IMG/VR virus record: IMGVR_UViG_3300025530_000275
Span: 1 to 64,000 of that record
DNA: 64,000 nucleotides
Source: a virus
Direction: 5' to 3' (one strand)
Of this stretch, positions 1,524-63,925 are shown piece by piece. Position numbers and translations under genes: made by a program. The first letter of the stretch is position 1. Each line of letters begins with the position of its first letter. The notes beneath the pieces are model-generated. The model was not told the DNA's origin, made no database searches, and saw nothing but the letters and a program-made list of their open reading frames with translations.

Positions 1524-1535
1524 TATTCTGATGTT
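1524..1535 (-). promoter_or_regulatory. Putative late promoter AACA-N6-TA
   Basis: AACA TCAGAA TA, 40 nt upstream of the fibre ATG. Confidence 0.6.
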
Positions 1536-1563
1536 CCAAAATCTTGTATGTCGCAGGAAAAAT

Positions 1564-1602
1564 AAAAAAAAATGGGAAGAGGATCTACCTCTTCCCATTT
1601 TT
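1564..1602 (-). terminator. Intrinsic terminator
   Basis: ATGGGAAGAGG-atcta-CCTCTTCCCAT flanked by A/T runs. Confidence 0.8.
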
Positions 1603-1977
1603 ATCTGTTCCTTTCTTAGTTTCCTTAGATTTTTCATCAGAATGATTAGCAGATTCCACATGTTCTTCTTTCTTTTCAATAGGAATTGGATTATTAAGAA
1701 TATGAATAAGTCTTGTAACTTTCTCAATGGAAGAAAGTCCGCGCGTTTTAAGCTCAATATCTGCAAGCATTTTGATAAAATTAACTCCATTGGTAGATAA
1801 TGAAATGATCGTGCCTCTTTGGTTATCAATAGAGGTAATACCATTATTTAATTCATAAATAAGACTTGAAATTCCCCTAAAATGCTTTATCCCCGTTTGC
1901 CTCAAGGTAGTATCAATAATAGTATCAATAGTTATGAGATCTTCATTAGTAAAGCCGTAGTTATTTCTTTCATTCAT
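1585..1977 (-). CDS. Hypothetical protein (130 aa) in the tail-fibre block
   Basis: GGGAGGGA RBS; two similar halves ending LIYELNN and LIHILNN. Confidence 0.7.
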   Translation of the reverse strand: MNERNNYGFTNEDLITIDTIIDTTLRQTGIKHFRGISSLIYELNNGITSIDNQRGTIISLSTNGVNFIKMLADIELKTRGLSSIEKVTRLIHILNNPIPIEKKEEHVESANHSDEKSKETKKGTDKNGKR

Positions 1978-2026
1978 AAGTTAGAATCCCTCCCTGAATT
2001 TTATTCAGGGTTTGTAATCTATTTTT

Positions 2027-5000
2027 TTAGAGAATATAGCCTTCTATAAGATCTCCTTGAATATAAATATTATCAAAATCTTTCATTTTGAAGATATTGC
2101 TAAACATTTTTTCTATAATATCTTCATCTAAAGCGCGTTTTAGTACAACAAGATTTCTATACATTGTATTACAATCGACGCCTCTATATCCACCTAATTT
2201 GAAATCATAGCCATCGTCGCAAACAAAATAGTCCGGGTTGGATATAGAAACATTTTCAACAAATTCATAGCCAGAGCTATTTAATCCCCAGAACTTCCAT
2301 TTTATAGTATCACCATTCTTGACTATAGAAACCATATGAAGTTTATCAAAATATTTAGTAAGATCAATAGGTATATTTCCAACACTATTGACCCTTAAAT
2401 TATTAGAATCAATTTGTTTACCCCACCATCTATAACCTCCGCCGACTGTATTATTAAACATCCCAAGAGATTCTACGTTATATCCGGTGAGGTCATTTCT
2501 ATTGGTCCCTTTAGGTATTTTCCAGTAAATGATGCTCCAATCAGCACTCCAGTCCAGATTTATTTCTTTATGAAAATTGAATTCCAGTTTAGATGTTTTA
2601 AGCGAAGTTTTATGAAATGGAACTTCATAAGTGGCATTCACAAACAAGGGATTTCTATAAAGGATGTATCCTCGTGATGCCTTATTATTATCATAGCATG
2701 GAGATAATAATATCCGAACATCTTCGTCGGATTCGGAAATGAAAGTAGTGATCAATTTCTGCCAAGAGCCTTTTTTAGATAGATCATATTTTAATTTTTC
2801 TGAACTGCTTTTATCAATGATTATAAATTCATCATAATCTCCATCATAGTCCAGAGATACAAATACTTCTACACAGAAAGTATATCTTTTATTTATTTCT
2901 AACGGTATGATATTTCCTTTGTAGTTAGTAAGCTCTTTATGAAAGTTATATTTATATACGACGAATGTATCATCAAACGATAGCGGTTTAAATTTCTTGC
3001 CAACATTTTCTTCAAAGAGATTAGTATTTTCATATACTTTGAATAGTTGTCGTCTTTCAGATACTGCCCACACATATCCTTTATCAAAGATAAGATTTTC
3101 TTTATTTACAGCATCAACTACATAATTTTCATCCAGAGTATTTTCGCTTAATGGCCAATAATATGCATCCTCTGGTACATAGAATGACTTCTCATTAATT
3201 TTTCCATTAATAGACCCATTGTCCTGTATTCTTAATTTTACATCAGTTTCAAATAACTCTTTAACCTCATCGGAGTCTAATGATCTATCATATATTGATA
3301 ATGAGTGAATAATATGGCCAGGAACTGCTCCTGGATTTCCATTAGAAGTAAGATCCAGGTATTCTATAAATTCCCCAGGTCCATTGATATTTTTAGTTTC
3401 ATTCAAAATTCCGTTTATATAAACACTTGCTTCGCTTTCATCTACTGAGATAGTTATATTATTCCTCTTATCTTGATAAAAATCATCTTCAGACAATATA
3501 AATTCATTCTCATCATCCCCATTTATTCTTATGCGATATACGTTTTCTTCAGCATCTTTCCAGAATGCTATTTTATCAAGAGATGAATTACCGCTCAAGA
3601 TATTAATTTCCTTCTCAATATTATTGGGATTTGATGGGGTGACATCTATATTTATAGTATAAGGAGATTTAAGTTTTACCGGAATTTTACATTTAGGCGT
3701 GCCATTATATACAAGAGGATTAGTCACAGTATTTGATTTCTCACATTGAGGTAAATAAACTTCTATATATTCACCTTTATTAGAGATTGAACCGATGGTT
3801 AGTAATACACGTCTTGTATTCTGAAGAATTTCTTGGGTCACTTTAAGCTGTTTAAACGTATTTGTAATATCAAGATAATCTGAGTGTGCGACGTAGAGCT
3901 CAGAATTATATTGATTCAATAGGGATATAGATAATCTAACTTTATCAGGGACGTTTGATCTAATATATGCAGAGAATGTTATAATATCACCAGTTTCAAA
4001 TCCTTGATCGATTTGTGTATGAAGAGTTTGTTCGTCGGAAGTAGAATTTTCTTTAATGGAAATCATTTGAGAATAGTGATTTTCAAAGCTGTTTCTCACA
4101 ATCTTCTTTGTATTAGTTTCTCTTAGCATATCGCCAATATAATTTATTGATGAAAGTACTAAATGGGGCTTATCATTAAAATATTGATAGCTTAAAATAT
4201 GTTGACCGCCAGGCAATGCAATAAGACCATAAACCATTCCATTTGTGCTAGTAGTTTTTAGAAAACTTATACTATCTTTATCTTTTTCAAATAATGTCAA
4301 TGCACCAGGGCTGACCGTAGCTCCGGTTATTATAAATCTTCCATTTTCGAAAAATTCTATTGATGAAGCCTGACCGGAAATTTGATTTTGATAAATTAAG
4401 GTGAGATTATCCTTATCTCGTTTAAGTATAGCTATATTGTCACTTGCCACAGCTAAATAATTTCCATCCGGCGAAAACTTTGTTTTGAATAATGACCCTA
4501 TTCCCAATAAAACACTATTGACTATTTGTAACGAGTTATTAACAATTTTTAGCAAATAAACGTTAAATTGACCAATGCTGGGCGTTACGATTGATACATA
4601 TTTACCATCAGGGCTAAACGCTATATCATGTACAGATAGAGGAAAATCAATTGAATGCTGATAAATCAACGTATCTTCTTCTAATTTTAATAGAAAAATA
4701 GATCGAGAATTCGCCGAATATCTACTTTCTGCCACTATATGTTCCCCATCAGGAGAAAATCGAATATCTTCAAACCTATGACCGGGGTAGTTAAATGTGT
4801 CAATCAGTTCCAAACTATCCCCATCTCTTCTTAAAAGAAATATACCATGGGTTTCAGATATATTTGTTATAACCAGATATTCCCCATCCGGTGAGAATGA
4901 GATATAAGAAACCTCCCCGGATACTGGGAGTACAAGTTCGCTAACAAGATCAAATGAGTCTTCTGTGCGCTTATATAGATATACAATATCAGAGTTATAT

Positions 5001-7065: not shown

Positions 7066-10062
7066 TTAGGGAATCAATACGAAGTCAATAGAATTCTCGT
7101 CCTCATTATATAAAATTTGAAGTTTCTGAGGTCCAATAGGATTTTTGAACGACAAGCTAGTGGTCTCAATATTATTTTCCACATTTAGATTCCCATTAAT
7201 ATACACATCTCCAGTTAGTGTAGGAGAATCAGAAGAGACTTTTTCATCCAATTGATCTTGAATATTCCCAACAAGCCCGTTAAGGAATGATAGTTGAGCA
7301 TAAGAAATGTCTCCGATAACTGTAGTCTCAGGGAGCTTCACGTTACCTGTAAATACCGGTGAATCAATAGGAGCCCTTGATGTGTCCGTGGGATGAACGT
7401 GATCCTCTCTGGCAAATCTTGTGGAAGTACCAGCATCTGCTTCGCCATCCATTAAAGGATCTGAATTCCCAGCCTGATTAATTACAAATTCAGTAGTTGC
7501 GATTTGTTTGTTATTAGTATCAACTGGGGCTGTGGGCGCGGTAGGAGTACCAATAAATTCTGGTGAGTCACTTTCTATCTTTTTATTAAGCTGAGTTTGA
7601 ATATTATCGGTAAGTCCAGAGAGATATGAAATCTCTTCAGGAGTAACATCCCCTATTGTAGTAGTATAAGGAAGTATTACGTTTCCAGTAAATACAGGAG
7701 AGTCAGTCGGCGCAGCTTCAAACCCTGTACTAGATTTCGGTATCGGCGCAGAATGAATTCCAACACCTGTGCCGCCAGCAGTTATAACTGGTAATGCGAT
7801 TTGTACTACAGCTCCGCCAGGAGCATATAAATAAGGAGCAAGTTTATCATATCCAGAATCAGTTAATATTACCGATTGAATATGAACCCAATCGTCTTCA
7901 GTCGTGAGTTCTAAATAATCCCCGTTGACTTCAACACCGTTTTTATAGAGTTTAAAACTTTTCTTAATAGTCATACCATCGCCGTCTTTAAGGCGAATCC
8001 ATGCGCTAAACGTAAAGAATCTTCCTGATCCAGAAAAGTCTCTATTGTTTATAGTTAATATATAGTGATGATCATTTACGTCATGGGGATATTCAGTACC
8101 ATTACCCTGAGTTATACTGGCCACGTAAAACTCAGAACCATATCTTTTGCTTTTTCCAGTAAGGTCATTAATAACATCGAGCAATTCTTTAACGTCCGAG
8201 TTTAAAGATCCTCTATTGCCACCATTATCAGAGTTATTATTTATAAATTTTCCAGCAGGTGCTATAATACTATTATTATAGGTGCCGAAAAAGTCATTGA
8301 TGTTTTCAAATGGATATGAGGATTCTATAGAATATGGGTCAAGGAGTTTACCCATAAACCTACCGGAATCTCCCAGTAAGTTAACCACTGGGATATTTGC
8401 CACATTGTAGATATTGTTACCCTGAACATCAACGTCGGGAGTTTTTACTAATCCAGTAAATTCTGGTGAATTAACTGGCGCTCTTGATGTATCTGTAGGA
8501 TGGACGTGGTCCTCTCTAGAATATCTAGATGACGTACCAGCATTTGCATTGCCGTCCATCAGAGGATTTTCATCACTTGCTTGACCTAATACGTATTCAG
8601 TAGTAGCTAGACGTTTACTGTTATCATCTTTAGGCGGTGTGGGAGCTTTTGGTTCGCCAGTAAACTCCGGTGATTCAACTGGTGCTCTCGATGTATCTGT
8701 AGGATGGACGTGATCCTCTCTAGAATATCTAGATGACGTTCCAGGAGATTCTTCACCGTCCATCAGAGGATTTTCATCACTTGCTTGACCTAATACGTAT
8801 TCAGTAGTAGCTAGACGTTCACTGTTATCATCTTTGGGCGGTGTGGGAGCAGTAGGTGTACCAATAAATTCTGGGGAGTCTAAGTCTGCTTTTTCGTCAA
8901 ATCGCTCATCTATATAATCTATTAATGATAATCTTACAGTTTCAGTCAGGGATTCAATTACATCTAGCGGAAGTCGTTGCTCGTTGTCGTTGATATCCTT
9001 AAGAGCCCTATACAAATATCCAAAGAAACCCTCGGCTATATCAATAATTTGATAGTTTAATGTAGGTACAGTAAACGGCTCATTGGTAATTACGGTTATA
9101 GAGTAATGAGCCCCATCCTCTAACCCAATTACACTCTTTTTATCAGCAGATATTTTTAGGTCAACTTTTTCAATGCCATATATCGTAGTCTTTACAGCAG
9201 CCAATACTTTTAATATTTGATAGTCTTCATCATCACCAATGAATTGATAACTATTCCCTTCTATAATATCGACGACTTTGCGATACGATTCAAAAACAAA
9301 TTTATCATTTTTGTCAAGGAGAAACATTGTTGTATCAACTTTAACAGAAGCGGGAGCATTTCTTCTATTCAAGAACCAGAAAGGATACTTAAGATCCTCA
9401 GTTTCTTTATCTTTGATAATATAAAGATATCCATCAGTTCCAATATACATATGATCTCTAAAGTTAGGATCGTCCTTATTATCCTCAATCGTGAGAGGAT
9501 AGTTCAAGCTAGTTCGAACATCTTCAGTTTCTGTCATGAAAATTTTGAAAATTTTATTATTGCTTAGGGTTTCTTGATCGAGACTCTCAAGTATTTTTAC
9601 TTTCTTTACATACTCGGTCATTATACCCTTATTAATATCAATTTCATCTGCATAACCATTAAGTTTGCAGAAATAATCTGGGAAAAGAACTAAGTCTTTG
9701 AGATTATTGTCACTATCATAGTGAACAAGCATCACACGGTTGTGAATATCAGTTGCTGTTACTTTACTAAGAAGAGGCATTGATCGGGAAATTTTATCTG
9801 AGAAATCTCCCTCTTCGCCAACACCAACTGTTGCACTTTTTGTTTTCTGTGTAATGCTTATACTGTCAGGATTATAGATATTCTTATAGTCAGATACACT
9901 TAATATAGGATGTAAATTACCTTCCTCGTCTTTATATATAAGACGAAGAGTCGAATCAAACGCCAATTCATTATTTTGCATATCATTAGGATCATCAAAT
10001 ACTTTGAAGAAGTTAGCAAAATGTAGCTTCTTTATATCTACCATCAATATCTCACCGTCCAT
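7066..10062 (-). CDS. Tail fibre protein
   Basis: Typical fibre shaft motifs SPEFIGTPTAPT...LATTEYV and REDHVHPTD, three copies. Confidence 0.8.
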   Translation of the reverse strand: MDGEILMVDIKKLHFANFFKVFDDPNDMQNNELAFDSTLRLIYKDEEGNLHPILSVSDYKNIYNPDSISITQKTKSATVGVGEEGDFSDKISRSMPLLSKVTATDIHNRVMLVHYDSDNNLKDLVLFPDYFCKLNGYADEIDINKGIMTEYVKKVKILESLDQETLSNNKIFKIFMTETEDVRTSLNYPLTIEDNKDDPNFRDHMYIGTDGYLYIIKDKETEDLKYPFWFLNRRNAPASVKVDTTMFLLDKNDKFVFESYRKVVDIIEGNSYQFIGDDEDYQILKVLAAVKTTIYGIEKVDLKISADKKSVIGLEDGAHYSITVITNEPFTVPTLNYQIIDIAEGFFGYLYRALKDINDNEQRLPLDVIESLTETVRLSLIDYIDERFDEKADLDSPEFIGTPTAPTPPKDDNSERLATTEYVLGQASDENPLMDGEESPGTSSRYSREDHVHPTDTSRAPVESPEFTGEPKAPTPPKDDNSKRLATTEYVLGQASDENPLMDGNANAGTSSRYSREDHVHPTDTSRAPVNSPEFTGLVKTPDVDVQGNNIYNVANIPVVNLLGDSGRFMGKLLDPYSIESSYPFENINDFFGTYNNSIIAPAGKFINNNSDNGGNRGSLNSDVKELLDVINDLTGKSKRYGSEFYVASITQGNGTEYPHDVNDHHYILTINNRDFSGSGRFFTFSAWIRLKDGDGMTIKKSFKLYKNGVEVNGDYLELTTEDDWVHIQSVILTDSGYDKLAPYLYAPGGAVVQIALPVITAGGTGVGIHSAPIPKSSTGFEAAPTDSPVFTGNVILPYTTTIGDVTPEEISYLSGLTDNIQTQLNKKIESDSPEFIGTPTAPTAPVDTNNKQIATTEFVINQAGNSDPLMDGEADAGTSTRFAREDHVHPTDTSRAPIDSPVFTGNVKLPETTVIGDISYAQLSFLNGLVGNIQDQLDEKVSSDSPTLTGDVYINGNLNVENNIETTSLSFKNPIGPQKLQILYNEDENSIDFVLIP
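8452..8877 (-). repeat. 204-bp (68-aa) near-identical tandem duplication; diverged third copy at about 7345-7566
   Basis: ctctagaatatctagatgacgt at 8514 and 8718. Confidence 0.9.
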
Positions 10063-10110: not shown

Positions 10111-10122
10111 TAATAAAATGTT
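10111..10122 (-). promoter_or_regulatory. Putative late promoter followed by a hairpin (10076-10104)
   Basis: AACA TTTTAT TA; the downstream stem GGAGAAGA..TCTTCTCC lacks a clear U-tract. Confidence 0.5.
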
Positions 10123-10125: not shown

Positions 10126-13100
10126 TTACAGAGGATAACGAGGATAAGGGCCGGATCTCATCGTAGAAATCGGTATACGACCATCAGGCAACATTGTTCC
10201 AGGGAGCTCTTTTGGTATCATTTTCATATCCTGCTCAGTAAGGGATTCTCTACCCTTTAAGCAGTAATGATAAAGAATTTCAAAAAGATGTCTTTCAGTG
10301 AGATAAACTTCCCTTGAATTATATTCTCCTTGATTTGCCTGATAGAGTGGACCAATCAGTTCCTCCAGCTCTTGTTCTGAAAGAGTCTTCAGATACTCAG
10401 TCCATTTATCCTCAATGCCAGCAAATTTATCTTTATCAATACAATCAATTCTTTTTCTGTATATACACATATTATTAATCGAGTTTGTTTTAATAGAAAA
10501 TCTATAGTTATCAATCTCCTTAATGTCCCCAGGGTAAATTAACCTGCCATCTACGAATACTAAGAAGTAATTCTTTGAGAAAGGAATTTCTTTATTTGTG
10601 AGAGTAATTATTTTCTCACCATCTTGTAATTGCACATTGTACTCAATGAGCTCAAATTCAGTAGTGAAATAGCCTGTAAATAATTCTCCGTCTATAGTAT
10701 TCGTATCCAAGTCAGTTGCTATAACTGTATCTCCTTTAACCACTGTGTAATTAAAAGGATCGAACAAATGATATCTATCATGTTCAAGAAGTCTTCCGTT
10801 TAAGAAGATTAACATTCTTTCTTTAGGAACAAAGCTTACCCATGTGGGTAATTTCTCCAAGAGTCCATCATAACTATGACCCTCAGAAATAACTTTGTTA
10901 TACCGTTTTTCGCATATAGCGGCATAATTTCCAGTAACCTCACTTGCAAAGCTAACCTTATAAATATTCTCATCTATTTCTACAGAATATTCATTTTCGT
11001 TCATTAATCTGAGACTGCCTTTACTATCATTAATTTGAGGAATATATTCAAATAAATCAACTTTAGACCTAGGGTTAAAATGAGACGATGGGCCGAACAC
11101 CACAGTATTAGTTTCTATAGGTTTGATTTCATAGTATGGTTCATAATTTTCTCCAGTATCAAGCTCATCAATTCTATTCCCATGTATACTATTTGCCCTA
11201 AACCAGAACGTCCATCTTTTAGATATTCGATCAAATCTATATTTATCAGGGGCGACATTTAGACCATTAACAAAAAGAAGTCTTTGTCTTAAATCATGTC
11301 TAGTAGTAAGGGATATAGGATGTAGTAATTCATTAGGCAATTTTATAACTTTGCTGAAATCATCGTAATAGAGCTTGAACGTGGTGTGCTCATCTACAGA
11401 TAAATCGTTTACTAAGCTATAATTATCACTGATTTCAGAAGAACTTCTACCCACATTAGAAATTCTAGCATCATGAATGATGATATTGCTAGTTCCTTCC
11501 TCATGATCTGAACCGATATAGAAATGTTCCCCTATAATAGCACTAGGTACACTTGTTTTAAATCCGATTAAGGTTCCGTTTAAATATAAACGCAAAGTTC
11601 CATTTTTCCAATAGGTACTTACATAATAAGGCTCATTGATGTTAATACGACCAGGATTAGATACAATAAATTTATCCGGATGGTCTATACCACAAATTGA
11701 TGTACCTATTCTTCCATCAGATTCTATAAAAATAGATAATATTTCAGATTCGGATTGTTTATCATTGCGAACAATCCAAGTTTTATCATTTTCCCTAAGA
11801 TTTTTAAGTGTGAACCAAATCTCTATATTTCCCTCTTCAGGATTAAGAACATTTTTTGAGGGCACTTTTAATATTTCTTTAGATTTTTCACCAACTGTGA
11901 ATGTCAGGCCGTGTGATTTTTCTAATACTTGAAATTCTTTTAGATAGTAATCTTTTTCATCATAGCCATTTTCTTTACCCCAAAGACCAAAAGATATAAC
12001 ATCTCCAGAACCTGTAAATGTGCCTGTCGGCATTCTGTATTCTCTATAAATAAATCCATCTTCACCCATTTCATTAATGTGTAAATATTGCTCCAACTTA
12101 ATAGGAGCATCCCCTACCGCAGAACCATAAGCCCAAAGTGAATGATCTTCTGTATTCGTAACATATTTTATCTTAAAATGTACTGTAAGAGGAGATGATT
12201 TGTCTATCGTCATAGACGGGCTGTTAAGTTTTATAGTTCCATTATTTGCATTAAAGGAAGTATGTCTCAACACATTATTTTTGACTGTAGTGTTAGAGGA
12301 AATCATTTTATTATAATCAGAAATGCTCCAATTGGAAGGGTTTGACTCGTCTGAGTCACCCAACAATATCTCATTTTCAAATAAAGGGTCAGAAATTTTA
12401 TTAACTACCTCTTCTTCTATGATGACCCCTCTTTTAAGAGGATCTTCATTTTTAATATATCTCGGCTCATTAATATCAAGAGTTTTATATTTACCATCTA
12501 CACTTGTAGCGGTACTTTCTCTTATAAATACAGGATTTATATCACTAATTTCATAACTTCTAAAGTGAATAGGAGCAGAGTTCTCCTCTATATAATTTTT
12601 CAAGAAATCGGGAAAATCTTTAACAGCTGTGAGCATTTTACTTTCAAATTCAGAAAAAGGACTATCTATAGTAACATTAGGTTTAAAAGGTTTATAGTTC
12701 TTAATAAAATCAGGAAGAGTATCATTTATATATTCATCCATAAAATCTTTATACTCATTATATTTATGGAGAAGATCATAATAGCTTGTAACGAAGTTGA
12801 TTCTTTTGGAGAATGCAACTAATCTTGGAGAATCGTCATCAACTTCTTTTTTCCATACAACTCCTCCATTTAAATCTCCATTTGCCGACCCAATATCGTC
12901 TACTATTTCAGTTCCATCATTTTCATTCATAAGCCAACGATGTTTTAATCCATCATATATTGCAACACCATCTGTAATATAAGCAATTTCAGTAAATCTC
13001 AAAATTCTATCATAAATCTGAATCATATCAACTTCAATATCCGCATATTTTTGAGATTCATTAGCCTGGCGACCCAGAACCAATTCATCGGTTCCGGAAT

Positions 13101-15216: not shown

Positions 15217-15228
15217 TATTTTTGTGTT
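15217..15228 (-). promoter_or_regulatory. Putative late promoter
   Basis: AACA CAAAAA TA upstream of the 1685-aa gene. Confidence 0.65.
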
Positions 15229-18341: not shown

Positions 18342-18353
18342 TAATAAGCTGTT
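18342..18353 (-). promoter_or_regulatory. Putative late promoter
   Basis: AACA GCTTAT TA. Confidence 0.6.
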
Positions 18354-19639: not shown

Positions 19640-20212
19640 TTATTTTACTCCTGTATGACCAAATCCACCAGACCCGCGTTGAGTTTCAGAAAGTTCCTCA
19701 CTTTCAATAAATACCCCTTTAATTACGCGACAAAGAATTCCTTGAGCAATTCTATCTCCTTTATGAATAATGATTGTTCCAACAGGATAAGAATCATTAA
19801 GTTCTTCGTAATTACCTTCAAGGTTAAGAACGTGGCGAGATTTTAAAAATTCAATCTGACCAGTATTCTTATTGAGGTAATATTTGGGATATGCAAAATT
19901 ATCAACAATTACTCTGTATTCTCCTCTGTATACAGAATCACCAGTTCCAAGCACTATTCTCAATTTTGTTTTAGAAGAAATACCAGAGCGGGGTCTTACT
20001 TGGAGTTCCACTCCGAGAGGCAATTCAAAAGCCAAACCAGCACGAACTGTGGTAGTTTGTCCCGGCTCCAGAATGATATCTTCCATGGCATAGAGATCAA
20101 AACCGGAATCTCCGTGGATTTTATATTTTGGGAGACCGATTTCATTATTGATCAGTTTTGTTTTGATCTCTACTTTTTCATAGAAGTTTTCTTTAGTTTC
20201 CATTTTTGTCAA
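19640..20212 (-). CDS. dut: Trimeric dUTPase with an insertion between motifs III and IV
   Basis: Motifs SGFDL, RSG, GTGDSVYRGE, RIAQ, RGSGGFGHTG. Confidence 0.92.
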   Translation of the reverse strand: MTKMETKENFYEKVEIKTKLINNEIGLPKYKIHGDSGFDLYAMEDIILEPGQTTTVRAGLAFELPLGVELQVRPRSGISSKTKLRIVLGTGDSVYRGEYRVIVDNFAYPKYYLNKNTGQIEFLKSRHVLNLEGNYEELNDSYPVGTIIIHKGDRIAQGILCRVIKGVFIESEELSETQRGSGGFGHTGVK

Positions 20213-20309
20213 CTCCCTTTTATCTAATTTATCAAAATAGTTGTACAGAAATTAAAAGTTTATAAAAAAGAAGAGCCCAGCTCTAGTGACAGAGCTGGAC
20301 TTTGTTTTT

Positions 20310-21431: not shown

Positions 21432-21447
21432 TTTCTATCTCCTCTCT

Positions 21448-24115: not shown

Positions 24116-24268
24116 AATACATCACTTCCTCTAAAAAAAATATAAAAAAAAATAAGTTAACCCTCTCTTGAGAAGGGTTAGCATGATGGCTTATTAAAGT
24201 GTTCATATGATGCTTATTTTTTAACTAGAACTAAATTCTAAGCGCATTTTTTAAAGTTTGGTAAAATT

Positions 24269-24685: not shown

Positions 24686-24739
24686 AAATTATACCCTCCC
24701 ATTTATCGTGCCCATGGTGACATATCTACTCAAAAAATG

Positions 24740-34095: not shown

Positions 34096-34131
34096 TAATT
34101 GGCTGTTTTTCATATAAAAAACACAAAAATA
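34096..34131. promoter_or_regulatory. Back-to-back divergent late promoters
   Basis: Minus AACA GCCAAT TA (34096-34107) and plus AACA CAAAAA TA (34120-34131). Confidence 0.7.
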
Positions 34132-36939: not shown

Positions 36940-36951
36940 AACACACAGATA
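36940..36951 (+). promoter_or_regulatory. Putative late promoter of the beta-prime gene
   Basis: AACA CACAGA TA. Confidence 0.65.
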
Positions 36952-41672: not shown

Positions 41673-41686
41673 AATAATATATAATT
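41673..41686 (-). promoter_or_regulatory. Putative early promoter
   Basis: AATTATATATTATT. Confidence 0.7.
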
Positions 41687-46111: not shown

Positions 46112-46193
46112 TTCCTCCTTAATATTGTTTGGAATGATTTTCCTTATACCTATGTTACAAGGAAACTGTGGATAGTATTACAATTGGATGTTA

Positions 46194-47288: not shown

Positions 47289-47355
47289 CCTCCAGTATTA
47301 ATTATTATAAAACTGTTTTTCAAATGAAAAAAGGATACTCTTTTATGAGCATCCT

Positions 47356-50365: not shown

Positions 50366-51484
50366 TTAGACACGTCCCATTGCGCGAATCATCTCACGCA
50401 ACGTTTTGTCTTGGTTGTTTGCTTCTCGTTCCAGTGTCCTATATGGATATTCTTGAAAATCCGGATAGGCATCAAACATCACGTATGCGATTTCATTTGT
50501 TTGGTCTAGAATTGTAAATCCTAAGAGATAGTATTGATTCATAATTTTTCTAGCTTCCTTGAATACATCAACGTCATATTGGTTTTTCAGAATATTGACC
50601 TCATTCATAGTCAATACAATGGTACCAATAGGTTTATAATTATCTGCTACTGTGCCCCATGCAAGCTTTGCAAGGCGCCGTCTGCGTTTAAATGCATCGA
50701 GCCATGGAGACTTAGTTCTGTTTAACAAGTCCTCTTTAATATTCGAAATTCCAAAAAGAAAATCAATCAAGGACTTTTGTTCACCAGAAATATATTTAAC
50801 GAAATTTAAAAATCCTTTACTTTGATGTATGCTTCCTACAATATCCTTTACTAATACTTGAGTAGGCACTTTATGCATAACTGCTTTAATATGAACAGGA
50901 ATTTCTACAGTTGTATCCTTTACATTCAAAGGAATGATAACCGTAGTAGGAAGAACTTCATTTGCCTTTTTCCATTCATGGTCAACAGTAGCAGTTGCCG
51001 ATTGAGAAGCTGCCTTTTTCTTTTGAGCATGAATGTCAGCCTTTTCTACAGAAACTTTTGATCTCAAATTTTCTACAAATTCTTTAGCTGCATTATTTTC
51101 ATTTAAAATACCATAATTAATTCTCTCGGAAGCCGCTTCTAATTTAATACTAACTGAGCCGATATTGGCCGGTACACCAATATTCTGATGCACTTTAGAG
51201 AGATGTTCCTTGATGCCATACTCACTGTTTGACATATCCACAAAGGGAATGAGGGAAAATGCAGTTCTCGTGAATACAGCATAGTTCCTTTCAAACATCT
51301 TCATCAACATCATGAGTTCATCAGATGTAAGCTGCTCCGAGCAGGCAATAGGGAAAAAGTACGTAGATTCCGTGGATGCTTGTGATAGAGACTTAAACCT
51401 TTGCGTAAGAGTAATCTTCTTTGTCTTCAAAATGTTATCTTTAATAATTTTCCTACCGAGCATAATGATATCCTCGATAAACAT
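50366..51484 (-). CDS. Hypothetical protein, late and probably structural
   Basis: 372 aa; GGAGGGAG RBS; late motif 51525-51536. Confidence 0.7.
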   Translation of the reverse strand: MFIEDIIMLGRKIIKDNILKTKKITLTQRFKSLSQASTESTYFFPIACSEQLTSDELMMLMKMFERNYAVFTRTAFSLIPFVDMSNSEYGIKEHLSKVHQNIGVPANIGSVSIKLEAASERINYGILNENNAAKEFVENLRSKVSVEKADIHAQKKKAASQSATATVDHEWKKANEVLPTTVIIPLNVKDTTVEIPVHIKAVMHKVPTQVLVKDIVGSIHQSKGFLNFVKYISGEQKSLIDFLFGISNIKEDLLNRTKSPWLDAFKRRRRLAKLAWGTVADNYKPIGTIVLTMNEVNILKNQYDVDVFKEARKIMNQYYLLGFTILDQTNEIAYVMFDAYPDFQEYPYRTLEREANNQDKTLREMIRAMGRV

Positions 51485-51592
51485 AAGAGACTACACTCCC
51501 TCCAATGGTGTTATAAATTATTATTATTAGTGTGTTCAGAAGAGATTAATAGATTTAATTTTTTAAGAAAAAAAATATCCCTTTCTTCTTTC

Positions 51593-52028: not shown

Positions 52029-52040
52029 AACACCAAAATA
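52029..52040 (+). promoter_or_regulatory. Putative late promoter
   Basis: AACA CCAAAA TA. Confidence 0.65.
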
Positions 52041-52045: not shown

Positions 52046-53164
52046 ATGAATAATAAAGGAAAGGAGTTGCTTAAATACATGTCACTCACATGGTCCAGTC
52101 TTATACAGGCTAGAAGAGGGATTTCTGCTACTGAATTTGAAAGACGACAAGATGAGAGAGCATTAATAGGAACCCACTCATCAAATCCATGGTATCAAAT
52201 GGAAATGTTTAATAGATATAACCTGCCACAAGGATTTCAATGGCCAGGTGGATTAAGAGGGCATATTTTCTTCACCAGGCCCGATTGCAACATAGTAGAT
52301 CTTGAAAATAAAGCTCTTCCTATAAGAGAGAAGCTTAGAGGAAGATCGGGATTTATTTCATTCCTCGAAGAAGATGTAGATAACGTTGAAAGTATTAAGA
52401 ATCCTGTAAATAAAGTAGTAATAAAACAATTGCAGCATAATACTGGACATCCAAGCGCATTCATGCCAGTGTTTTCAAATACATTTAGAGGGTACACACC
52501 TGAAGATCAAACTCTTGACACGGTGGAAAAAGGTGATACCTTACATGGAATTCGTCTAGTATATGCAAAGCATAGTATGAATTCTAGAACCTCTGGGACG
52601 TTTACTCTGACATTTCAAGATTTAAGAGATTTCCCAGTATATAAAACATTGTGTTTATGGACTGATTATATAGAAGCAGTATTTTTGGGCGACCATTCTC
52701 CAAATGAGTACTATATTAAATCTGGTATTATAGATTATGCAGTTGCTATGTACTATATAGTAACTAGAGATCATGTTGGGCCTGAAGTTGAAGCCTCAAG
52801 AGGAATTCTAAATAAAGGCGCATTAGAAATTGTATATTGGGAAAAACTTCTTGGAGTATTTCCTATTACAAGACCTGATAGTTCTTTTGCGACTGAAACC
52901 AGTAGATTCACTTATCCGGAATTTTCTGTGCAGTTTAAATATTCTATAAAAAGCAAATCTAGCATTCTTGATCCTTATGTCTTATCTGAATTGAATAGTT
53001 TATCCGCATTGCACCATAGGAAACCTAAAACTATAGCAGATAATTCTTTTAATGTCGGAGACGGTTGGACCGATACTGGTCATCCGTTTGTGAGCAACCC
53101 TATAGTGCAGAAATATAATGGTAAATTCTTTCTGAGTTGGAATATACATGATTCAGCAATTTAA
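52046..53164 (+). CDS. Tail-tube-fold baseplate/tube initiator protein (start probably 52079)
   Basis: GTFTLTFQD...W..YI...DYA...LLGVFP...FSVQFKY pattern of gp19/gp54-like proteins. Confidence 0.6.
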   Translation: MNNKGKELLKYMSLTWSSLIQARRGISATEFERRQDERALIGTHSSNPWYQMEMFNRYNLPQGFQWPGGLRGHIFFTRPDCNIVDLENKALPIREKLRGRSGFISFLEEDVDNVESIKNPVNKVVIKQLQHNTGHPSAFMPVFSNTFRGYTPEDQTLDTVEKGDTLHGIRLVYAKHSMNSRTSGTFTLTFQDLRDFPVYKTLCLWTDYIEAVFLGDHSPNEYYIKSGIIDYAVAMYYIVTRDHVGPEVEASRGILNKGALEIVYWEKLLGVFPITRPDSSFATETSRFTYPEFSVQFKYSIKSKSSILDPYVLSELNSLSALHHRKPKTIADNSFNVGDGWTDTGHPFVSNPIVQKYNGKFFLSWNIHDSAI

Positions 53165-56406: not shown

Positions 56407-56418
56407 AACACATCTATA
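56407..56418 (+). promoter_or_regulatory. Putative late promoter
   Basis: AACA CATCTA TA. Confidence 0.65.
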
Positions 56419-56453: not shown

Positions 56454-58724
56454 ATGTTCGATTTTTCAGAATTCGCGTTGCAAGATAGCATTGCGAACTA
56501 TAATCGGAAAATGATGCTTGAGTCAGAAAAAGCTGCAATTCAATCTCGTAAACGTCTGATCGAGAGTATTGTCGACACATTGGTCCATGAGTATGATAGG
56601 ACCTACAATACGGAAGCATCTAGAGTTATTGATAGAAAGTTCATCAGGGAAGGTGCGGTGATTCATATTGTCAAGGAAGCTGTTTATAGTATCTTCGAAT
56701 CCGCACTTCTTATTGATGAATCTGTAAAGGCTCAGTATAAAGATAATATTAAGATGATTTTCGAAAATTATTTCTACCAAATTCTTAAAGAGAGTAATAT
56801 TAAAACGCTTTCTCAATTTAAGCAATATGTAAAAAATTCGCACAAACTGTTTGAGAATGTTATCGAGCGCGCAGAGAAACTCGTTGAAATCAATGAAAGT
56901 GTGTATAATGAACTGCTTGAAACCACGTATAATAGCACGTCTCTGGATAATCTTATCATAGAGGCTGCTAATGCGGCAGCAGATCCTGAGACCCCTATTG
57001 ATGATAAAGTTGCCAAAGCGCGGGCAATGGTTGATAAGCTCAGTGAAGACTTTAGAAGATTTACTCTTGAACAGCGATTTGCCTCGGCGCATAAATTGAT
57101 TCAGGCTGCCATCATTATTCTCAAACTCGGCGTAGCGTTTGATAAGATATGGTACTCTCTTCTTGATAAACTCCTCTCCGTTGTCAACACTATATTTGGA
57201 CGAGAGTCTACCGAAAGCTTAAAAGAGAAATTGATGCGTAAGACGCTAAAAGAAGTTGATAATTACTATTATGTGGCAATCGACGTTGCAATTACTCTCA
57301 AGAAGCTGCAAAAGAAATTCCCTCCGGATTCTAAAGATTATATCAAGCTCGGAGATAGGATTGCTTCTATTTATAAGGCAATTGTAATAATAAACGATTA
57401 TCGACAAGAACTTATTGCTAAGTCTCAAAACAAGCCTCTTAAAGAAATGACTATCGCTGAGTTCATCACGGAATCTGATTCTGTTATTATGGATACATCT
57501 GCTAGGGATACTGTAATTGATGGGATTAAAGAAAAGCTTAATTCTACGATTGCAGATTTCGATCCATACGATGCATTAGAAAATCTTCAGCTTGTAAATA
57601 AAATCGTAGCAGAACCTCTTTATCAGCAAACATTTGTAACCCAAGGAAATTCGGGCTCGAATGTTGTCCTTGTTATTATCAAGGCACTGAAAACTCCTAA
57701 TATTCCTGATAAACTGAAAGCTCAATTTATTAAAGAAGCAAGAACTTTCAAACACAACTTGGACTCTGTGATTGAAACTGCTCGTAAGAGTGGTCGACAT
57801 GAACAAGTTCCTAGTTTGGTTAAACAAAGTAAGCGCCTCGAATCTTTCTTAGATCAATATGAAAAGAAAGGATACTTTGATACCAAGTTGGTTAGAGAAA
57901 GTATTTCCCCTCTTCTTTCCATTGACCATAAAGTTGGAATGGATGTGCTTGCATCTAATATCGCTGAAGCTACACAGTTCATTCTTCTCTACGAAACTAC
58001 TCCTGGAGATCTTGAATACATCACGCAAATGGTGAATGAAGCCGACGACCATGATCCTGATACGAAAGAGGATCTGAAAAATCTTTCTAAAATTATTAAA
58101 GAAGAAATTGATGACGATTCTGCGTCCGAGGATCTCTTAAAGGAAAGCTTGAAGCTGGAATCTGCCATTTATGAGAAACTTTACATGAATAGACCTGAAG
58201 GAATTTCTGAGGCTGCTGGCAATGAACTCAAGAAAGGGAAATATCCTAAGTTTGAGGACTTTATTGATGCTGACGAGAAAGAACTCATTGCGCACATCGT
58301 ATCAGCATCTGGTAAAGATAAAGTTGTTGATATTATTAAAGCTAAAATTATTAATGTGATTGAAAATGAGGAGAAAAAGATGGAAAAACTTGAGGAAGAA
58401 GAGCATAAGCTAATCTCAAGACTTTCTAAAAGATCTCCTGAAGGGGAAAAAGAGCTTCAAGAAGCTGTTAGGGCTGGTCTTGGCAGAATCAATGTCCCGA
58501 GAACTCTCTTTGAGTCGATTGTAATGAATCGTTCTAAAAAATATATTCAGGAAGCAGTTTCTCTTGGAACTGGTTTTGATATTGATATGCATAAAGAAAC
58601 TATTATGGGCGAAGCGATTACACTGTATACAATTCATGAAACTTTTAATACCCTTTATTTCGGAGGGTACAACCTCTCTAAGATCAATAAACTTACGGTT
58701 GATTACTATAATGGAAAAATTTGA
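56454..58724 (+). CDS. Large helical virion (head) protein, probably proteolytically processed
   Basis: Many hydrophobic-x-E-S/A sites (MLES, LIES, INES, IIEA, ITES, VRES, ISEA, LQEA, IQEA). Confidence 0.65.
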   Translation: MFDFSEFALQDSIANYNRKMMLESEKAAIQSRKRLIESIVDTLVHEYDRTYNTEASRVIDRKFIREGAVIHIVKEAVYSIFESALLIDESVKAQYKDNIKMIFENYFYQILKESNIKTLSQFKQYVKNSHKLFENVIERAEKLVEINESVYNELLETTYNSTSLDNLIIEAANAAADPETPIDDKVAKARAMVDKLSEDFRRFTLEQRFASAHKLIQAAIIILKLGVAFDKIWYSLLDKLLSVVNTIFGRESTESLKEKLMRKTLKEVDNYYYVAIDVAITLKKLQKKFPPDSKDYIKLGDRIASIYKAIVIINDYRQELIAKSQNKPLKEMTIAEFITESDSVIMDTSARDTVIDGIKEKLNSTIADFDPYDALENLQLVNKIVAEPLYQQTFVTQGNSGSNVVLVIIKALKTPNIPDKLKAQFIKEARTFKHNLDSVIETARKSGRHEQVPSLVKQSKRLESFLDQYEKKGYFDTKLVRESISPLLSIDHKVGMDVLASNIAEATQFILLYETTPGDLEYITQMVNEADDHDPDTKEDLKNLSKIIKEEIDDDSASEDLLKESLKLESAIYEKLYMNRPEGISEAAGNELKKGKYPKFEDFIDADEKELIAHIVSASGKDKVVDIIKAKIINVIENEEKKMEKLEEEEHKLISRLSKRSPEGEKELQEAVRAGLGRINVPRTLFESIVMNRSKKYIQEAVSLGTGFDIDMHKETIMGEAITLYTIHETFNTLYFGGYNLSKINKLTVDYYNGKI

Positions 58725-58732: not shown

Positions 58733-58765
58733 GTGAAGGATAGGGAATAGTTCCCTATCCTTCAC
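58733..58765. terminator. Bidirectional terminator
   Basis: GTGAAGGATAGGGAA/TTCCCTATCCTTCAC between convergent genes. Confidence 0.85.
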
Positions 58766-59472
58766 TTATTTTTTTTTATCTTTTCCTTCCATAAATCATA
58801 TATAGAATTTGCTATAATTTCAGGTGGATACCATTCATTAGATGAGTTAAATTTTCTTGTAGCAATCGGGTCCCAATTTTTTAGTGATATCAATGTATGG
58901 AGAAATTGCTCAACTTCTCCTTGATAGTTTATATCTCTTTCATTTATATCTAATTCTTTTCTATTACTCATAGCCTCTCGGGAGCTTTTCGAATCACTAA
59001 TAAGGACAAATACTCTATTAGGTTTAGGTATACGGAATAACTTATGCTCTATAAATTCTATAAAATTGGAAATACTGATCTTATCTTCATATGTTTTACC
59101 CTTAGCGCCCTGGTACAGCATATTTGAAGTACTATATCTATCAAATATTACAAAATCATAGTTTTTGATAATCGATTTTACTTTAGTATAGTACCCAATT
59201 ATTCTATCAAATGAATAGAATAATGATGCGATTCTTGGAGGAACTGAGTAGGGAGATTTCCCAAATTTTCCTTTAAGAAACCATCTTACAAGAAATGAGT
59301 GCCATTTATCATACATAGGAAAAGATACGGTTAAAACTTTATAGCCATCCTCTGTTAGAATATCATATAACTTTTTTGTAGTGGTTTCCTTTCCCGAACC
59401 GTCCAATCCTTCGATTACAAAAATATAAGGTGTCTTTTTCCCCACAATTTTCTCCCCTTCTATTATAATCAC
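58762..59472 (-). CDS. tmk: Thymidylate (dNMP) kinase
   Basis: IEGLDGSGKET P-loop, SFP, FDRYSTSNMLYQ, DINE lid. Confidence 0.88.
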   Translation of the reverse strand: MIIIEGEKIVGKKTPYIFVIEGLDGSGKETTTKKLYDILTEDGYKVLTVSFPMYDKWHSFLVRWFLKGKFGKSPYSVPPRIASLFYSFDRIIGYYTKVKSIIKNYDFVIFDRYSTSNMLYQGAKGKTYEDKISISNFIEFIEHKLFRIPKPNRVFVLISDSKSSREAMSNRKELDINERDINYQGEVEQFLHTLISLKNWDPIATRKFNSSNEWYPPEIIANSIYDLWKEKIKKNK

Positions 59473-59540: not shown

Positions 59541-60755
59541 TTAATCAAGCATTTTCATATTGTCAAATACTTTGGCAACCTGCTCTCTCATTACAGCTTC
59601 GCCAAGACCAAATTTATATTTGGCTACACCTATGACTGCACCTTTAAGGTATGCATCTTTAATTGCCTCAGCAGCCCAATGATCTGAAGGCACGTCTTCA
59701 TAAATGTCAGGAACTTCCCAAAAGTCATCGACTGTAATGAGGCCAAGATTTTCGAGAATTTTTACAAACTGCTCTCTAGTAAGAGTATCTCCCAATCCAA
59801 ATTTTTCAGAGGAGATACCATTAATGATGCCGGTCGTATATGCTTTCTTAATAGAATTAATAGCCCAATGGTTGTCAGGAACATCCTTGAACGGAAAATC
59901 TTCTCTAATGATAGGTTTATCATTCATAAGTCCAAGCCTATCAATTACCGCAACAACTTCTTCGCGTTTTACTTCCATATTAAGACCAAACTTTTTGTCC
60001 CCAATACCACTCATGATTCCTTTATTATATGCTTTCTTAATAGATTCAGCAGCCCAGTGATTTTCCGGGACATCGTCAAACATTTCAAGAGTTTTTATAG
60101 GTTCAATAACTACTGGAGGTTCAGGCTGCTCAACCTTTTCTTTATATTGACCCCAGAAGATTTCAGGATTGAAGCATTCATTTAAATCGACATTAATTCC
60201 ATTGACCATAATATCATTCTTATATTGATATAGATCGGCATATTTCGAGAGTTTTCCTTTACTCCAGGCATAGGTTTGCCAGAAGTATTTACAAGCCCCT
60301 CGTTTAGCCATCTCTTCGATTACGTCGAATTTACCATATATTCCGGCAAAATAGTCATCTCCGAGAATTTCTTGTGCGCCTTTCAAAAATGCTTCAAATT
60401 GGTCGTAATCCGATTTAGGGGCATCATAATCTACAGCAAAGAAAATTGCGCTCTTTTTAGGCTGACCAAGGGCAATAGCGCGTTGTTTGGCTTTATTAGC
60501 AGCAACTTTCCCTGCACTGTACCCATATTTGGGACCATCTTTTCCTTCTTGGAAAACCGAACCGATCATAAATCCGGCTTTCTTAAGGTTTTCAACCTCT
60601 GTTTTGGAGAAATATTTCCAAGATTCAGGTCCTGCGAGGTAACGTATGAAGAAGCTCCCAAATTTCCCATTTTGATAACTTGCAAGACTTTTAGCCTGAG
60701 CTAAACTAAGGCCAGCGCCTCTGTCATATCCGAAGATACTTGACATTGTTATCAT
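59541..60755 (-). CDS. Endolysin: DUF1906/GH25-like glycoside hydrolase plus 3 SLH domains
   Basis: RYL..K....E, IFFAVDYD, YFWQTYAWS, VDLN; three F.DVP..HWA...REE/REQ repeats. Confidence 0.88.
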   Translation of the reverse strand: MITMSSIFGYDRGAGLSLAQAKSLASYQNGKFGSFFIRYLAGPESWKYFSKTEVENLKKAGFMIGSVFQEGKDGPKYGYSAGKVAANKAKQRAIALGQPKKSAIFFAVDYDAPKSDYDQFEAFLKGAQEILGDDYFAGIYGKFDVIEEMAKRGACKYFWQTYAWSKGKLSKYADLYQYKNDIMVNGINVDLNECFNPEIFWGQYKEKVEQPEPPVVIEPIKTLEMFDDVPENHWAAESIKKAYNKGIMSGIGDKKFGLNMEVKREEVVAVIDRLGLMNDKPIIREDFPFKDVPDNHWAINSIKKAYTTGIINGISSEKFGLGDTLTREQFVKILENLGLITVDDFWEVPDIYEDVPSDHWAAEAIKDAYLKGAVIGVAKYKFGLGEAVMREQVAKVFDNMKMLD

Positions 60756-61474: not shown

Positions 61475-61531
61475 TAACCTCCAACCTTTTTTAGTATTTT
61501 ATCTAACGTTTGGGAAATAATAACAAAAGCA

Positions 61532-61558: not shown

Positions 61559-61564
61559 CTTGTA

Positions 61565-62170: not shown

Positions 62171-62190
62171 CTCCTTAATTTGTTTTTGTA

Positions 62191-62532
62191 TTACTTACAG
62201 TCGCTACAGTCGTCTTTGTTGATAGATTCAAGCTTTTCCATGATGTGACTAGCAAGAGAATTCAATTCCTCGTTACTCATGTTTTCAACATCTTTATTCT
62301 TGATAATATCATCAATAACTTGATTTTCTTCAGGAGTGAGATCGAACTCATCGCTATCGTCCAGATCAACGAGAAGTCCTACATCATTAACAGAGATTTC
62401 TCCAGTTTCTTCATCCTCATCAACATCGAGGACACATTCGCGGATGATTCTATTATGCATAGCATCGATTTCTTTCTTTCGACGTTCCCGCGCAAGTGCT
62501 CCAAACATATTTGTACCACCTTTCTCAAACAT
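62191..62532 (-). CDS. Acidic hypothetical protein
   Basis: 113 aa; late motif 62544-62555. Confidence 0.7.
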   Translation of the reverse strand: MFEKGGTNMFGALARERRKKEIDAMHNRIIRECVLDVDEDEETGEISVNDVGLLVDLDDSDEFDLTPEENQVIDDIIKNKDVENMSNEELNSLASHIMEKLESINKDDCSDCK

Positions 62533-62565
62533 ATTAAGCTTCTTATTGGTTTGTTGCTATAATAA

Positions 62566-63777
62566 TTATTTTAACAATGCCTTTATTTTCACTTTCAGAA
62601 TAAATAAAACGTATGGTATCAGGTAAAATCTTTCAATATCATTCGCTTCATAGTCATCTATTACCGAATTAAATTCTTCTATAGTTATTTCCTCATTATT
62701 ATATGCTTTAGCTATGACCAATTTTAATCCGGAGAGGTCTTCATAGTCCTTATCTATCATTTTATTTATAAATTCATAATCGAGCACTTTAATAAATTTA
62801 TTAAGATTTTCCTCATCTTCTTTATACACAAATTCTACGGATTGGAAAAGATCAATATCTTCAATCTCTTTGAATAGGCTTACGGCTAATGGTCTGAAAA
62901 GCACATAAGCATTCTTATCCCTCTCCATGGATTTGGTTATAAATTTCTGGAGAAAGAATGTTCTATTATATAAGCGATTATGCTTTGGTTCAAAGGGTAT
63001 CGGAGTCTCGAACGCAAAAATTAACTCCAATACCTCATCAAAGTAAATTACTCTATTATCCATCAAAAATTTTATCAAATATTTACAAGTTCCCATACCG
63101 GGAAGCTCATCGGATAATATATCCGGGGTTCTTAAATATCCAATACTGTCATCATAGTTTTCTTCAAGATATCTTGTAAGAATTTTTGAGTATGAATCAG
63201 TGCATTTTTCCAGGATGTTATAGTCTTCACGTCTTATAATAGCCTTATCTTCTGTACCAATATTTCTATAGATAGTATCATAAACTTCAGTGACCTGGTT
63301 TTCAATCTTCTTTGATCTAGAAGTTGGTACTACTGAATAATCTATAATATAATGATCTTCGCCTTTAATGGCCCTAATCTGAACATCAGTTACTATAAAT
63401 ATTATCTCAGAATTAAATGAGGGAATTATAAATGCGTCGCCTGCAACTGGCCTAATGGTTTGGTTAAGCATCATACACTGATCAGAATATTCAGTATAAG
63501 TACCATTTACCTCATCGTAAGTAATAGTTGCAGTGATAGCATTTACTGCAAATAATGGAAAGTTAAAAATCTTATTATATCTTACAGGAGAATCATCTCC
63601 AACATAAGACATTATATCCCTAGTACCAATCTCAGCCGTAGATTCCGCATTATTGATTGAAAAATAGGTACATGGAACTGGGTTAGTATCTAGGAATCTT
63701 GCGAATTGACTAAGGTTTCTCTCTTGTCGTAACCTGGCCTGAGACTCAATTAGATTTTGTACATCTAATACTCTCAT
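62566..63777 (-). CDS. Hypothetical late protein, possibly neck/head-closure-like N-terminal domain
   Basis: IRPVAGDAFII weakly resembles head-closure proteins; late motif 63853-63864. Confidence 0.55.
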   Translation of the reverse strand: MRVLDVQNLIESQARLRQERNLSQFARFLDTNPVPCTYFSINNAESTAEIGTRDIMSYVGDDSPVRYNKIFNFPLFAVNAITATITYDEVNGTYTEYSDQCMMLNQTIRPVAGDAFIIPSFNSEIIFIVTDVQIRAIKGEDHYIIDYSVVPTSRSKKIENQVTEVYDTIYRNIGTEDKAIIRREDYNILEKCTDSYSKILTRYLEENYDDSIGYLRTPDILSDELPGMGTCKYLIKFLMDNRVIYFDEVLELIFAFETPIPFEPKHNRLYNRTFFLQKFITKSMERDKNAYVLFRPLAVSLFKEIEDIDLFQSVEFVYKEDEENLNKFIKVLDYEFINKMIDKDYEDLSGLKLVIAKAYNNEEITIEEFNSVIDDYEANDIERFYLIPYVLFILKVKIKALLK

Positions 63778-63925
63778 ACTTATACACCTCTTTATAATAT
63801 TTTATGCGTCGTATTATAATATTTTATATTTATTTTTTACAGTATTATCCGTTATTGAAGTGTTTAACTTGAAGATAGTACAATAGGGAATTATTTTCCG
63901 GAAAATAAAAAATAGGAGGTAAAAT

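Follow-up and report, generated by a model that had tools for sequence, protein, structure and literature searches.

AR9-type late promoters

The late genes of Bacillus phages AR9 and PBS1 are transcribed by a non-virion RNA polymerase (nvRNAP) that forms a holoenzyme with the specificity subunit gp226 (PMC5312081, PMC5449584, PMC9209446; PDB 7S01, 7UM0, 7UM1). For promoter reading in the template strand, and solely with uracil, the AR9 enzyme has become the textbook example. When AR9 late promoters were mapped by differential RNA sequencing (dRNA-seq), the consensus AACA-N6-TA/G was present at 94 of 118 late starts (PMC5312081). Uracil DNA is established or presumed in AR9, phiR1-37 and the S6-type staphylococcal phages (PMC5312081, bioRxiv 10.1101/2020.12.14.422802), a state that according to Iyer and co-workers requires the absence of both thymidylate synthase (TS)/Thy1 and dUTPase (PMC7824862). 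A 2026 review describes uracil as directing transcription initiation to the viral RNA polymerases of jumbo phages without a nucleus (PMC13282480). No AR9-type phage with thymine DNA has been reported in the literature that was searched.

Here we describe a promoter system of this type in a stretch of virus DNA of 64,000 nucleotides (the window), which is the first 64 kb of the 206,953-bp IMG/VR virus record IMGVR_UViG_3300025530_000275 (hereafter G000; rated 100% complete, 34% G+C). We propose, with a probability of about 0.75, that the AACA-N6-TA sites of this genome are late promoters read by the phage nvRNAP together with a gp226-like subunit, on DNA that probably contains thymine. G000 shares with AR9/PBS1 the consensus AACA-N6-TA/G and its distance to the start codon, the classes of genes downstream (virion proteins, virion RNA polymerase, tape measure, sheath), the early promoter, the split beta and beta' genes of both the nvRNAP and the virion RNA polymerase, and a homologue of gp226 that is full-length and has kept its place in the gene order. 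By contrast, AR9 has uracil DNA, encodes Ugi, dCMP deaminase and deoxyribonucleotidase and lacks dut, tmk, thyA and thyX, whereas G000 has the reverse set. Judged by its sequence, G000 has every feature of an AR9-type late promoter except the uracil-specific one, a conserved valine in the specificity subunit. The nvRNAP of phiKZ with its gp68 subunit (PMC7598289, PMC5312081) is likewise a multisubunit phage enzyme with a sigma-like fifth subunit that acts on thymine DNA, as would be the case for G000. Its late promoter, however, is TATG, and the closest cultured relatives of G000 by tblastn are of the AR9 type.

Relatives of G000 were reached via protein, as a megablast search with 20 kb found none at the nucleotide level among GenBank phages. 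The cultured phages closest to G000 by tblastn are Bacillus phages AR9/PBS1 and BpSp, Listeria phage LPJP1, Yersinia phage phiR1-37 and staphylococcal jumbo phages, AR9 matching about 50 genes of G000. A scan of IMG/VR with an alignment of gp226 homologues returned seven loci, as opposed to only one relative when a single virion protein was the query, and the uncultured relatives G002, G003 and G004, which are complete or near-complete, were reached through this alignment. Ten genomes were compared: G000, G001, G002, G003, G004, AR9, phiR1-37, Staphylococcus phage AH12, LPJP1 and BpSp.

Statistics of the late promoter motif

Over the whole window AACA-N6-TA is not enriched, with 44 occurrences observed against 57±8 in shuffled sequence. 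Its distribution, on the other hand, is far from even. Intergenic DNA makes up 7.4% of the window by our own gene calls and holds 15 of the 44 occurrences (binomial P=3.4e-7), and dinucleotide-shuffled versions of these intergenic segments contained only 4.8±2.2 sites, with a maximum of 12 in 1000 shuffles. The initial annotation of the window had listed about 15 intergenic, correctly oriented sites, had cautioned that so short a word is common in AT-rich DNA and that the evidence is its position, and had proposed an enrichment test of this kind. All of its sites are exact, on the correct strand and fully intergenic, with a start codon 27-77 nt downstream, and its caution is borne out by the contrast between the window-wide and the intergenic counts. 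That the sites stand mostly ahead of structural genes can be upheld for at least 6 of the 15 (one tail-fibre gene, four genes for virion-protein homologues, and the gene for virion RNA polymerase beta'N); several others precede genes without known function.

Across the whole genome, 43 upstream-sense sites of the form AACA-N6-T[AG] were found ahead of 40 genes, compared with about 11.5±3.4 in dinucleotide shuffles (maximum 24 of 1000), an excess of about 9 standard deviations, while the antisense (16) and reversed (11) controls are at background. In an unbiased enumeration of all words consisting of a 4-mer, a gap and a 2-mer, AACA-N6-TA and its one-base-shifted versions came top after T-runs and Shine-Dalgarno words. 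In leave-one-out counts a preference was evident for every one of the six fixed bases taken singly and for the N6 spacing, and the same is true of AR9. Positions that had not been selected are also conserved: of the 43 sites, 27 have A at -12 and 34 have A at +2, and A is likewise favoured at -3 and -2. In 36 of the 43 the ATG follows the presumed start at a distance of 22-50 nt, and the profile of these distances is the same in G000 and AR9. With an identical script for all genomes, AR9 as positive control gave 75 upstream-sense sites against 13.6±3.4 in shuffles, and the corresponding values were 43 against 12.0±3.5 in G000, 33 against 8.3±2.9 in G002, 35 against 11.7±3.6 in G003, and 57 against 13.1±3.7 in G004.

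Promoter class is conserved between orthologues whose proteins have diverged considerably. In reciprocal-best pairs of G000 and AR9 (median identity 29%), the motif was present ahead of the AR9 orthologue for 16 of 20 G000 genes with the late motif, versus 8 of 32 genes without it (Fisher P=1.6e-4); the same test gave P=5e-7 against G002 and P=8e-6 against G003. Genes with the late motif in both G000 and AR9 include those for the sheath, the tape measure and other virion proteins, as well as the two large virion RNA polymerase genes. The early motif is likewise conserved between orthologues and is shared at the genes for DNA polymerase and gp226, and RNase H has both promoter classes in G000 and AR9 alike.

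Because of their position, orientation and spacing from the ATG, the conservation of flanking positions that were not selected and of the motif between orthologues, and the presence of the cognate machinery in the same genome (see below), the predicted AACA-N6-TA sites are well supported as AR9-type late promoters. The start sites and the enzyme that reads the motif are what we infer from these data by analogy with AR9.

RNA polymerases, specificity subunit and early promoters

All four AR9-type nvRNAP core pieces (beta'N, beta'C, betaN and betaC) are encoded in G000, as are virion RNA polymerase pieces. Used as a tblastn query, AR9 gp226 had no match in the G000 genome, and its homologue was identified by a phmmer search against PDB sequences as the 497-aa product of a gene at genome positions 71126-72619(-), outside the window. 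This protein matches PDB 7S01 chain A (AR9 gp226) with an E value of 2.4e-17 (residues 24-474 versus 15-446) at about 24% identity. The gene order of AR9 is kept around it, with GroEL, the homologue of the hypothetical gene preceding gp226, the gp226 homologue, and then primase further on, and an early promoter stands ahead of the gene, as it does for AR9 g226.

The early promoter class of G000 has the form aAAT-ATATATTAT-T-N4-TG, with about 35 intergenic copies genome-wide, and is almost identical to the consensus AAATATATATTAT-N6-G of the AR9 early promoters, which are used by the virion RNA polymerase (PMC5312081). In addition to the gene for the gp226 homologue, it precedes the nvRNAP beta'N operon, the DNA polymerase gene and small early genes.

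The nvRNAP beta'C gene, which lies outside the window, is split by a 608-nt non-coding spacer (genome 98432-99038) that has 40% GC versus 34% for the genome and a folding energy about 5 standard deviations below that of shuffled sequences. The gene is broken at the same residue in G002 (610 nt) and G003 (1332 nt) and unbroken in G004 and AR9. With the spacer as query, Rfam returned no family at a threshold as loose as E<=1. Two readings are possible, an intron that has gone unrecognised and the structured spacer of a split gene.

Thymidylate genes and the base in the DNA

The initial annotation had noted that the phage encodes a dUTPase and a dTMP kinase, and both assignments were confirmed. 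The dUTPase scores 118 bits on the NCBIfam dUTP diphosphatase equivalog NF001862 (cut-off 103), and its catalytic motifs can be read in an alignment to 8HRV, including the Asp/Tyr pair of motif III and the C-terminal arm of motif V. The dCTP deaminase model TIGR02274 does not match it; in G002 and G003 the matches of this model were no more than sub-threshold echoes of the dUTPases of those genomes. The dTMP kinase family protein (Tmk) scores 67 bits on Pfam Thymidylate_kin (gathering score 27), and its P-loop and DRY motif are seen when it is aligned to the Mycobacterium tuberculosis enzyme (TMPK). The suggestion that the dut and tmk products might have altered specificity finds no support, given a dUTPase that is above an equivalog cut-off and retains all five catalytic motifs.

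A search for thyA or thyX, Ugi and dCTP deaminase had also been proposed. It revealed a gene for a Thy1/ThyX-family protein elsewhere in the genome. The protein keeps the S-x-x-S-x-R-Y motif and belongs to a very large family of uncharacterised proteins, about 380 aa long (4555 matches at E<=1e-5, 45-48% identity) in which two C-terminal cysteines are invariant; a cluster look-up of the family returned no names. It may be a fused or duplicated form of ThyX. Homologues of AR9 Ugi, dCMP deaminase and 5'(3')-deoxyribonucleotidase were not found in G000 by tblastn (best E 0.24), where an analogue of Ugi, which is small and fast-evolving, is possible, and the Pfam family PF00383 had no match in the genome. 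Gene order in the ribonucleotide reductase (RNR) region (19640-25810) is as in AR9, comprising NrdI, RNR alpha and RNR beta together with hypothetical genes on the flanks; the gene behind RNR beta is that of the dUTPase in G000 and that of dCMP deaminase in AR9.

Among the ten genomes these genes follow the phylogeny of the polymerase. In an unrooted tree of nvRNAP betaC, which was built without an outgroup, G000, G001, G002 and G003 group together with strong support at the end of a long stem, and G004 is an uncultured sister outside this clade. A dUTPase above the equivalog cut-off and Tmk are present in all four clade members; three of these have the ThyX-like gene, and G002 has instead a ThyA that passes the NCBIfam thymidylate synthase equivalog cut-off. 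dUTPase, Tmk, ThyX and ThyA are absent from all six other genomes (G004, AR9, phiR1-37, AH12, LPJP1, BpSp). A uracil-DNA glycosylase gene was considered as a sign against uracil DNA and proved uninformative, there being none in any of the ten genomes.

Because of this gene set and its pattern across the ten genomes, it is very likely that G000 DNA contains thymine, or at least a C5-substituted uracil; the base is one that we infer from gene content. Uracil-DNA jumbo phages are recognised by having no dUTPase, ThyA or ThyX and, on the model of AR9, by having Ugi, dCMP deaminase and a dTMP-removing nucleotidase. This is not the profile of G000, which its gene content excludes from the uracil-DNA group as currently defined.

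In the system that we propose for G000, the four-piece nvRNAP with its gp226-like, sigma-like specificity subunit would read the AACA-N6-TA late promoters and initiate, like the AR9 enzyme, on the A that follows the T, some 20-50 nt ahead of the start codon. The AT-rich early promoters (aAATATATATTAT-T-N4-TG) would drive the nvRNAP and replication genes, again as in AR9, and the late promoters those for virion proteins and the virion polymerase. With the dUTPase removing dUTP, the ThyX-family enzyme making dTMP and dTMP kinase alongside, the genome would be built with thymine. The template-strand pyrimidines at -11 and -10, which are deoxyuridine in AR9, would then probably be thymidine and be read by a remodelled pocket.

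The -11/-10 pocket

In AR9 the -10 uracil is held between gp226 I207 and betaN R363, with its C5 atom 3.9 Å from V206; templates that have T at either -11 or -10 are not transcribed (PMC9209446). The gp226 mutant V206G accepts T at -10, using U and T equally, and leaves the requirement at -11 unrelieved (PMC9209446). Inspection of this pocket in the gp226 homologue, as the initial annotation had advised, revealed that V206, I207 and Y210 of AR9 align with G226, M227 and R230 of G000 (in alignments of 24-30% identity). The valine that is conserved in the 2.1bis helix is replaced by Gly226. In betaN, AR9 R363 aligns with Y378 of G000, and K375 is kept. G000 therefore resembles the AR9 V206G mutant in having glycine at the position from which a side chain would collide with the methyl group of a thymine at -10; the AR9 mutant, however, is a laboratory point mutant, whereas the glycine of G000 is natural, stands amid other pocket changes and is replaced by Arg in G003. 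Taken together, the changes fit a roomier pocket. GACA variants at -11 account for 7-8 of about 45 leave-one-out matches in the G000 clade versus 1 of 76 in AR9, which may hint at a looser -11 contact.

It seems rather likely that the whole natural clade reads AACA-N6-TA with template thymidines at -11/-10 by means of a remodelled gp226/betaN pocket (Gly226, Met227, Arg230; betaN Tyr378). The strict need of AR9 for deoxyuridine would in that case be a specialisation of its lineage, as opposed to a property of the transcription system itself, and the clade would be a source of natural T-reading enzymes for direct comparison. Its members have the same promoter word, polymerase and specificity factor as AR9, and yet possess a dUTPase and an apparently complete route to thymidylate. 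Either thymine DNA serves the system just as well, uracil dependence being a late specialisation, or the phages of the G000 clade have reverted. The clade provides natural variants of the -10 pocket with which to test how discrimination between U and T is built, and a warning that AR9-type promoters in metagenomic phages are no ground for inferring uracil DNA. Of the two readings in the initial annotation, we favour that of a polymerase able to use the motif without uracil, considering the machinery encoded and the thymidylate gene content. The accompanying idea of an evolutionary intermediate goes beyond the data, these phages forming a separate, long-stemmed lineage in an unrooted tree.

Alternative explanations

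Several observations weigh against promoters that are read on thymine DNA. G000 is uncultured and known from sequence alone. Tmk scores below the NCBIfam equivalog cut-off, so dTMP is its putative substrate. The ThyX-like protein reaches 44 bits on NCBIfam thyX (cut-off 87.9), and the position of the RHR in the ThyX signature RHR-x7-S-x-R reads NEK in an alignment by eye to what we take to be a ThyX sequence; an RHR that is invariant in its family is displaced about 160 residues further on, at 260-262. Neither the protein alone nor an 18-sequence profile of it had a sequence match in the PDB, and Foldseek matches to its AlphaFold2 model, which has a predicted local distance difference test (pLDDT) score of 76, are weak, all of the matches listed being to ThyX. 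The dut, tmk and thyX genes each lie behind a terminator hairpin without a recognisable early or late promoter, and signalling roles are possible for phage dUTPases that carry the insertion seen here. Glycine at the V206 position is no marker of thymidylate genes on its own: G003, with dut and ThyX, has Arg, and G004, with neither, has Gly. In addition, the exclusion of T at -11 by the AR9 enzyme is due to the conformation of the DNA backbone (PMC9209446), which is beyond assessment from sequence.

In one alternative, the promoters would be of the AR9 type and the DNA would contain uracil, the dUTPase having another role (in signalling, or directed at the host) and the ThyX-like protein being no thymidylate synthase. 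In its favour, G000 and AR9 have one and the same promoter consensus, AA at -11/-10 included, the ThyX-like protein departs from typical ThyX, the dUTPase insertion resembles that of the moonlighting staphylococcal phage Duts, and the three genes have no recognisable phage promoter. We nevertheless regard uracil DNA as unlikely, in that a dUTPase with all of its catalytic motifs would deplete the dUTP needed for a uracil genome, dut and tmk together with ThyX or ThyA occur in all four clade members and in none of the six AR9-type genomes outside the clade, the known or presumed uracil-DNA phages among them, and searches of G000 for homologues of Ugi, dCMP deaminase and deoxyribonucleotidase were negative. 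The same promoters might also act on DNA with a C5-substituted uracil other than thymine, such as 5-hydroxymethyluracil or a hypermodified thymidine. Phages with 5-hydroxymethyluracil DNA (SPO1-type) likewise have as their core kit a dUTPase, an enzyme resembling thymidylate synthase and a monophosphate kinase, so the trio suits either pathway, and the divergence of the ThyX-like enzyme would be in keeping with this. Such a base is nonetheless quite improbable: the ThyX-like family is very large and does not look phage-specific, the ThyA of G002 passes a thymidylate synthase equivalog cut-off, the dUMP hydroxymethylases known to us are of ThyA type and not ThyX type, and no other modification genes were seen, though no search aimed at them was made. 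That the sites are merely chance AT-rich words, or a signal for the host RNA polymerase, might be suspected of a short word that is not enriched window-wide. This is very improbable in view of the excess over shuffles with antisense and reversed counts at background, the tight spacing to the ATG, the conservation of flanks that were not searched for, and the persistence of the motif across orthologues of about 29% protein identity; moreover, the motif is unlike the -35/-10 pair of sigma-70, and a cognate phage polymerase and specificity factor are encoded. AR9-type late promoters read by the phage nvRNAP on thymine DNA are thus the reading that we prefer.

Features of the window and of the remaining genome

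The predicted promoters and the genes on which the interpretation rests are collected in the table below.

Table. Coordinates of predicted promoters, RNA polymerase genes and thymidylate genes in G000. Positions are those of the window unless marked as genome positions outside the window; early promoter cores are ATATATTAT.
Feature	Position	Strand	Remarks
Late site	1524..1535	-	AACATCAGAATA; 40 nt upstream of the start of gene 3-1484(-)
Late site	10111..10122	-	before tail-fibre gene 7066-10062(-); hairpin between site and start codon
Late site	15217..15228	-	before 1685-aa gene 10126-15183(-); G002 and G003 orthologues also have the motif
Late site	18342..18353	-	before virion-protein gene 17360-18313(-); motif kept in G002, G003, G004 and AR9 orthologues
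Late-type site	24192..24203	-	upstream of nrdI-RNR genes; hairpin and T-run downstream of it; doubtful as mRNA promoter
Late site	34096..34107	-	before nuclease-SNF2 helicase gene 30716-34066(-); AR9 orthologue also has the motif
Late site	34120..34131	+	divergent, before gene 34173-34535(+)
Late site	36940..36951	+	before virion RNA polymerase beta'N gene; motif kept in AR9 and G003
Late site	46145..46156	-	before gene 44969-46105(-); TG variant at 46181-46192
Late site	47306..47317	-	before gene 46194-47279(-)
Late site	51525..51536	-	before virion-protein gene 50366-51484(-); motif kept in all four compared genomes
Late site	52029..52040	+	before virion-protein gene 52079-53164(+); motif kept in G004 and AR9
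Late site	56407..56418	+	before gene 56454-58724(+); motif kept in G002 and G003
Late site	62544..62555	-	before gene 62191-62508(-)
Late site	63853..63864	-	before virion-protein gene 62566-63777(-); motif kept in G002 and AR9
Early promoter core	15323	+	
Early promoter core	27009	-	
Early promoter core	27966	-	
Early promoter core	28657	-	
Early promoter core	41674..41682	-	upstream of nvRNAP beta'N
Early promoter core	51975	-	
nvRNAP beta'N	39505-41013	-	homologue of AR9 gp270; downstream of early promoter 41674 (tblastn)
nvRNAP beta'C	genome 97124-98431 + 99039-99845		tblastn
nvRNAP betaN	genome 118364-120253		tblastn
nvRNAP betaC	genome 124009-126096		tblastn
Virion RNA polymerase beta'N	36982-38565	+	tblastn
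Trimeric dUTPase	19640..20203	-	187 aa; motifs I-V intact; insertion of about 40 aa as in staphylococcal phage Dut
dTMP kinase family protein (Tmk)	58762..59445	-	227 aa; P-loop and DRY motif
Thy1/ThyX-family protein	genome 94772-95989	-	Pfam 61.7 bits versus gathering score 24.8

In the region 24140-24203(-), which includes the late-type site at 24192, a G+C-rich hairpin and T-run lie within about 20 nt downstream of the site, ahead of nrdI. The site might give rise to a transcript of about 50 nt, serve as an attenuator, or be a chance site beside the terminator of the upstream gene. A search of the window against Rfam found nothing.

A 178-aa protein encoded at 38607-39143(-) is 47% identical to the AR9 'AAA family ATPase' (RefSeq tag gp173). 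Few genes are better conserved between G000 and AR9, yet the protein has no Pfam match; it may be a nucleotide kinase.

The product of the gene at 59541-60755(-) is probably an endolysin, in which a glycoside-hydrolase-like domain of the Rv2525c type is combined with two S-layer homology (SLH) domains. Its host would accordingly have a cell wall that anchors SLH domains and would probably be a member of the Bacillota.

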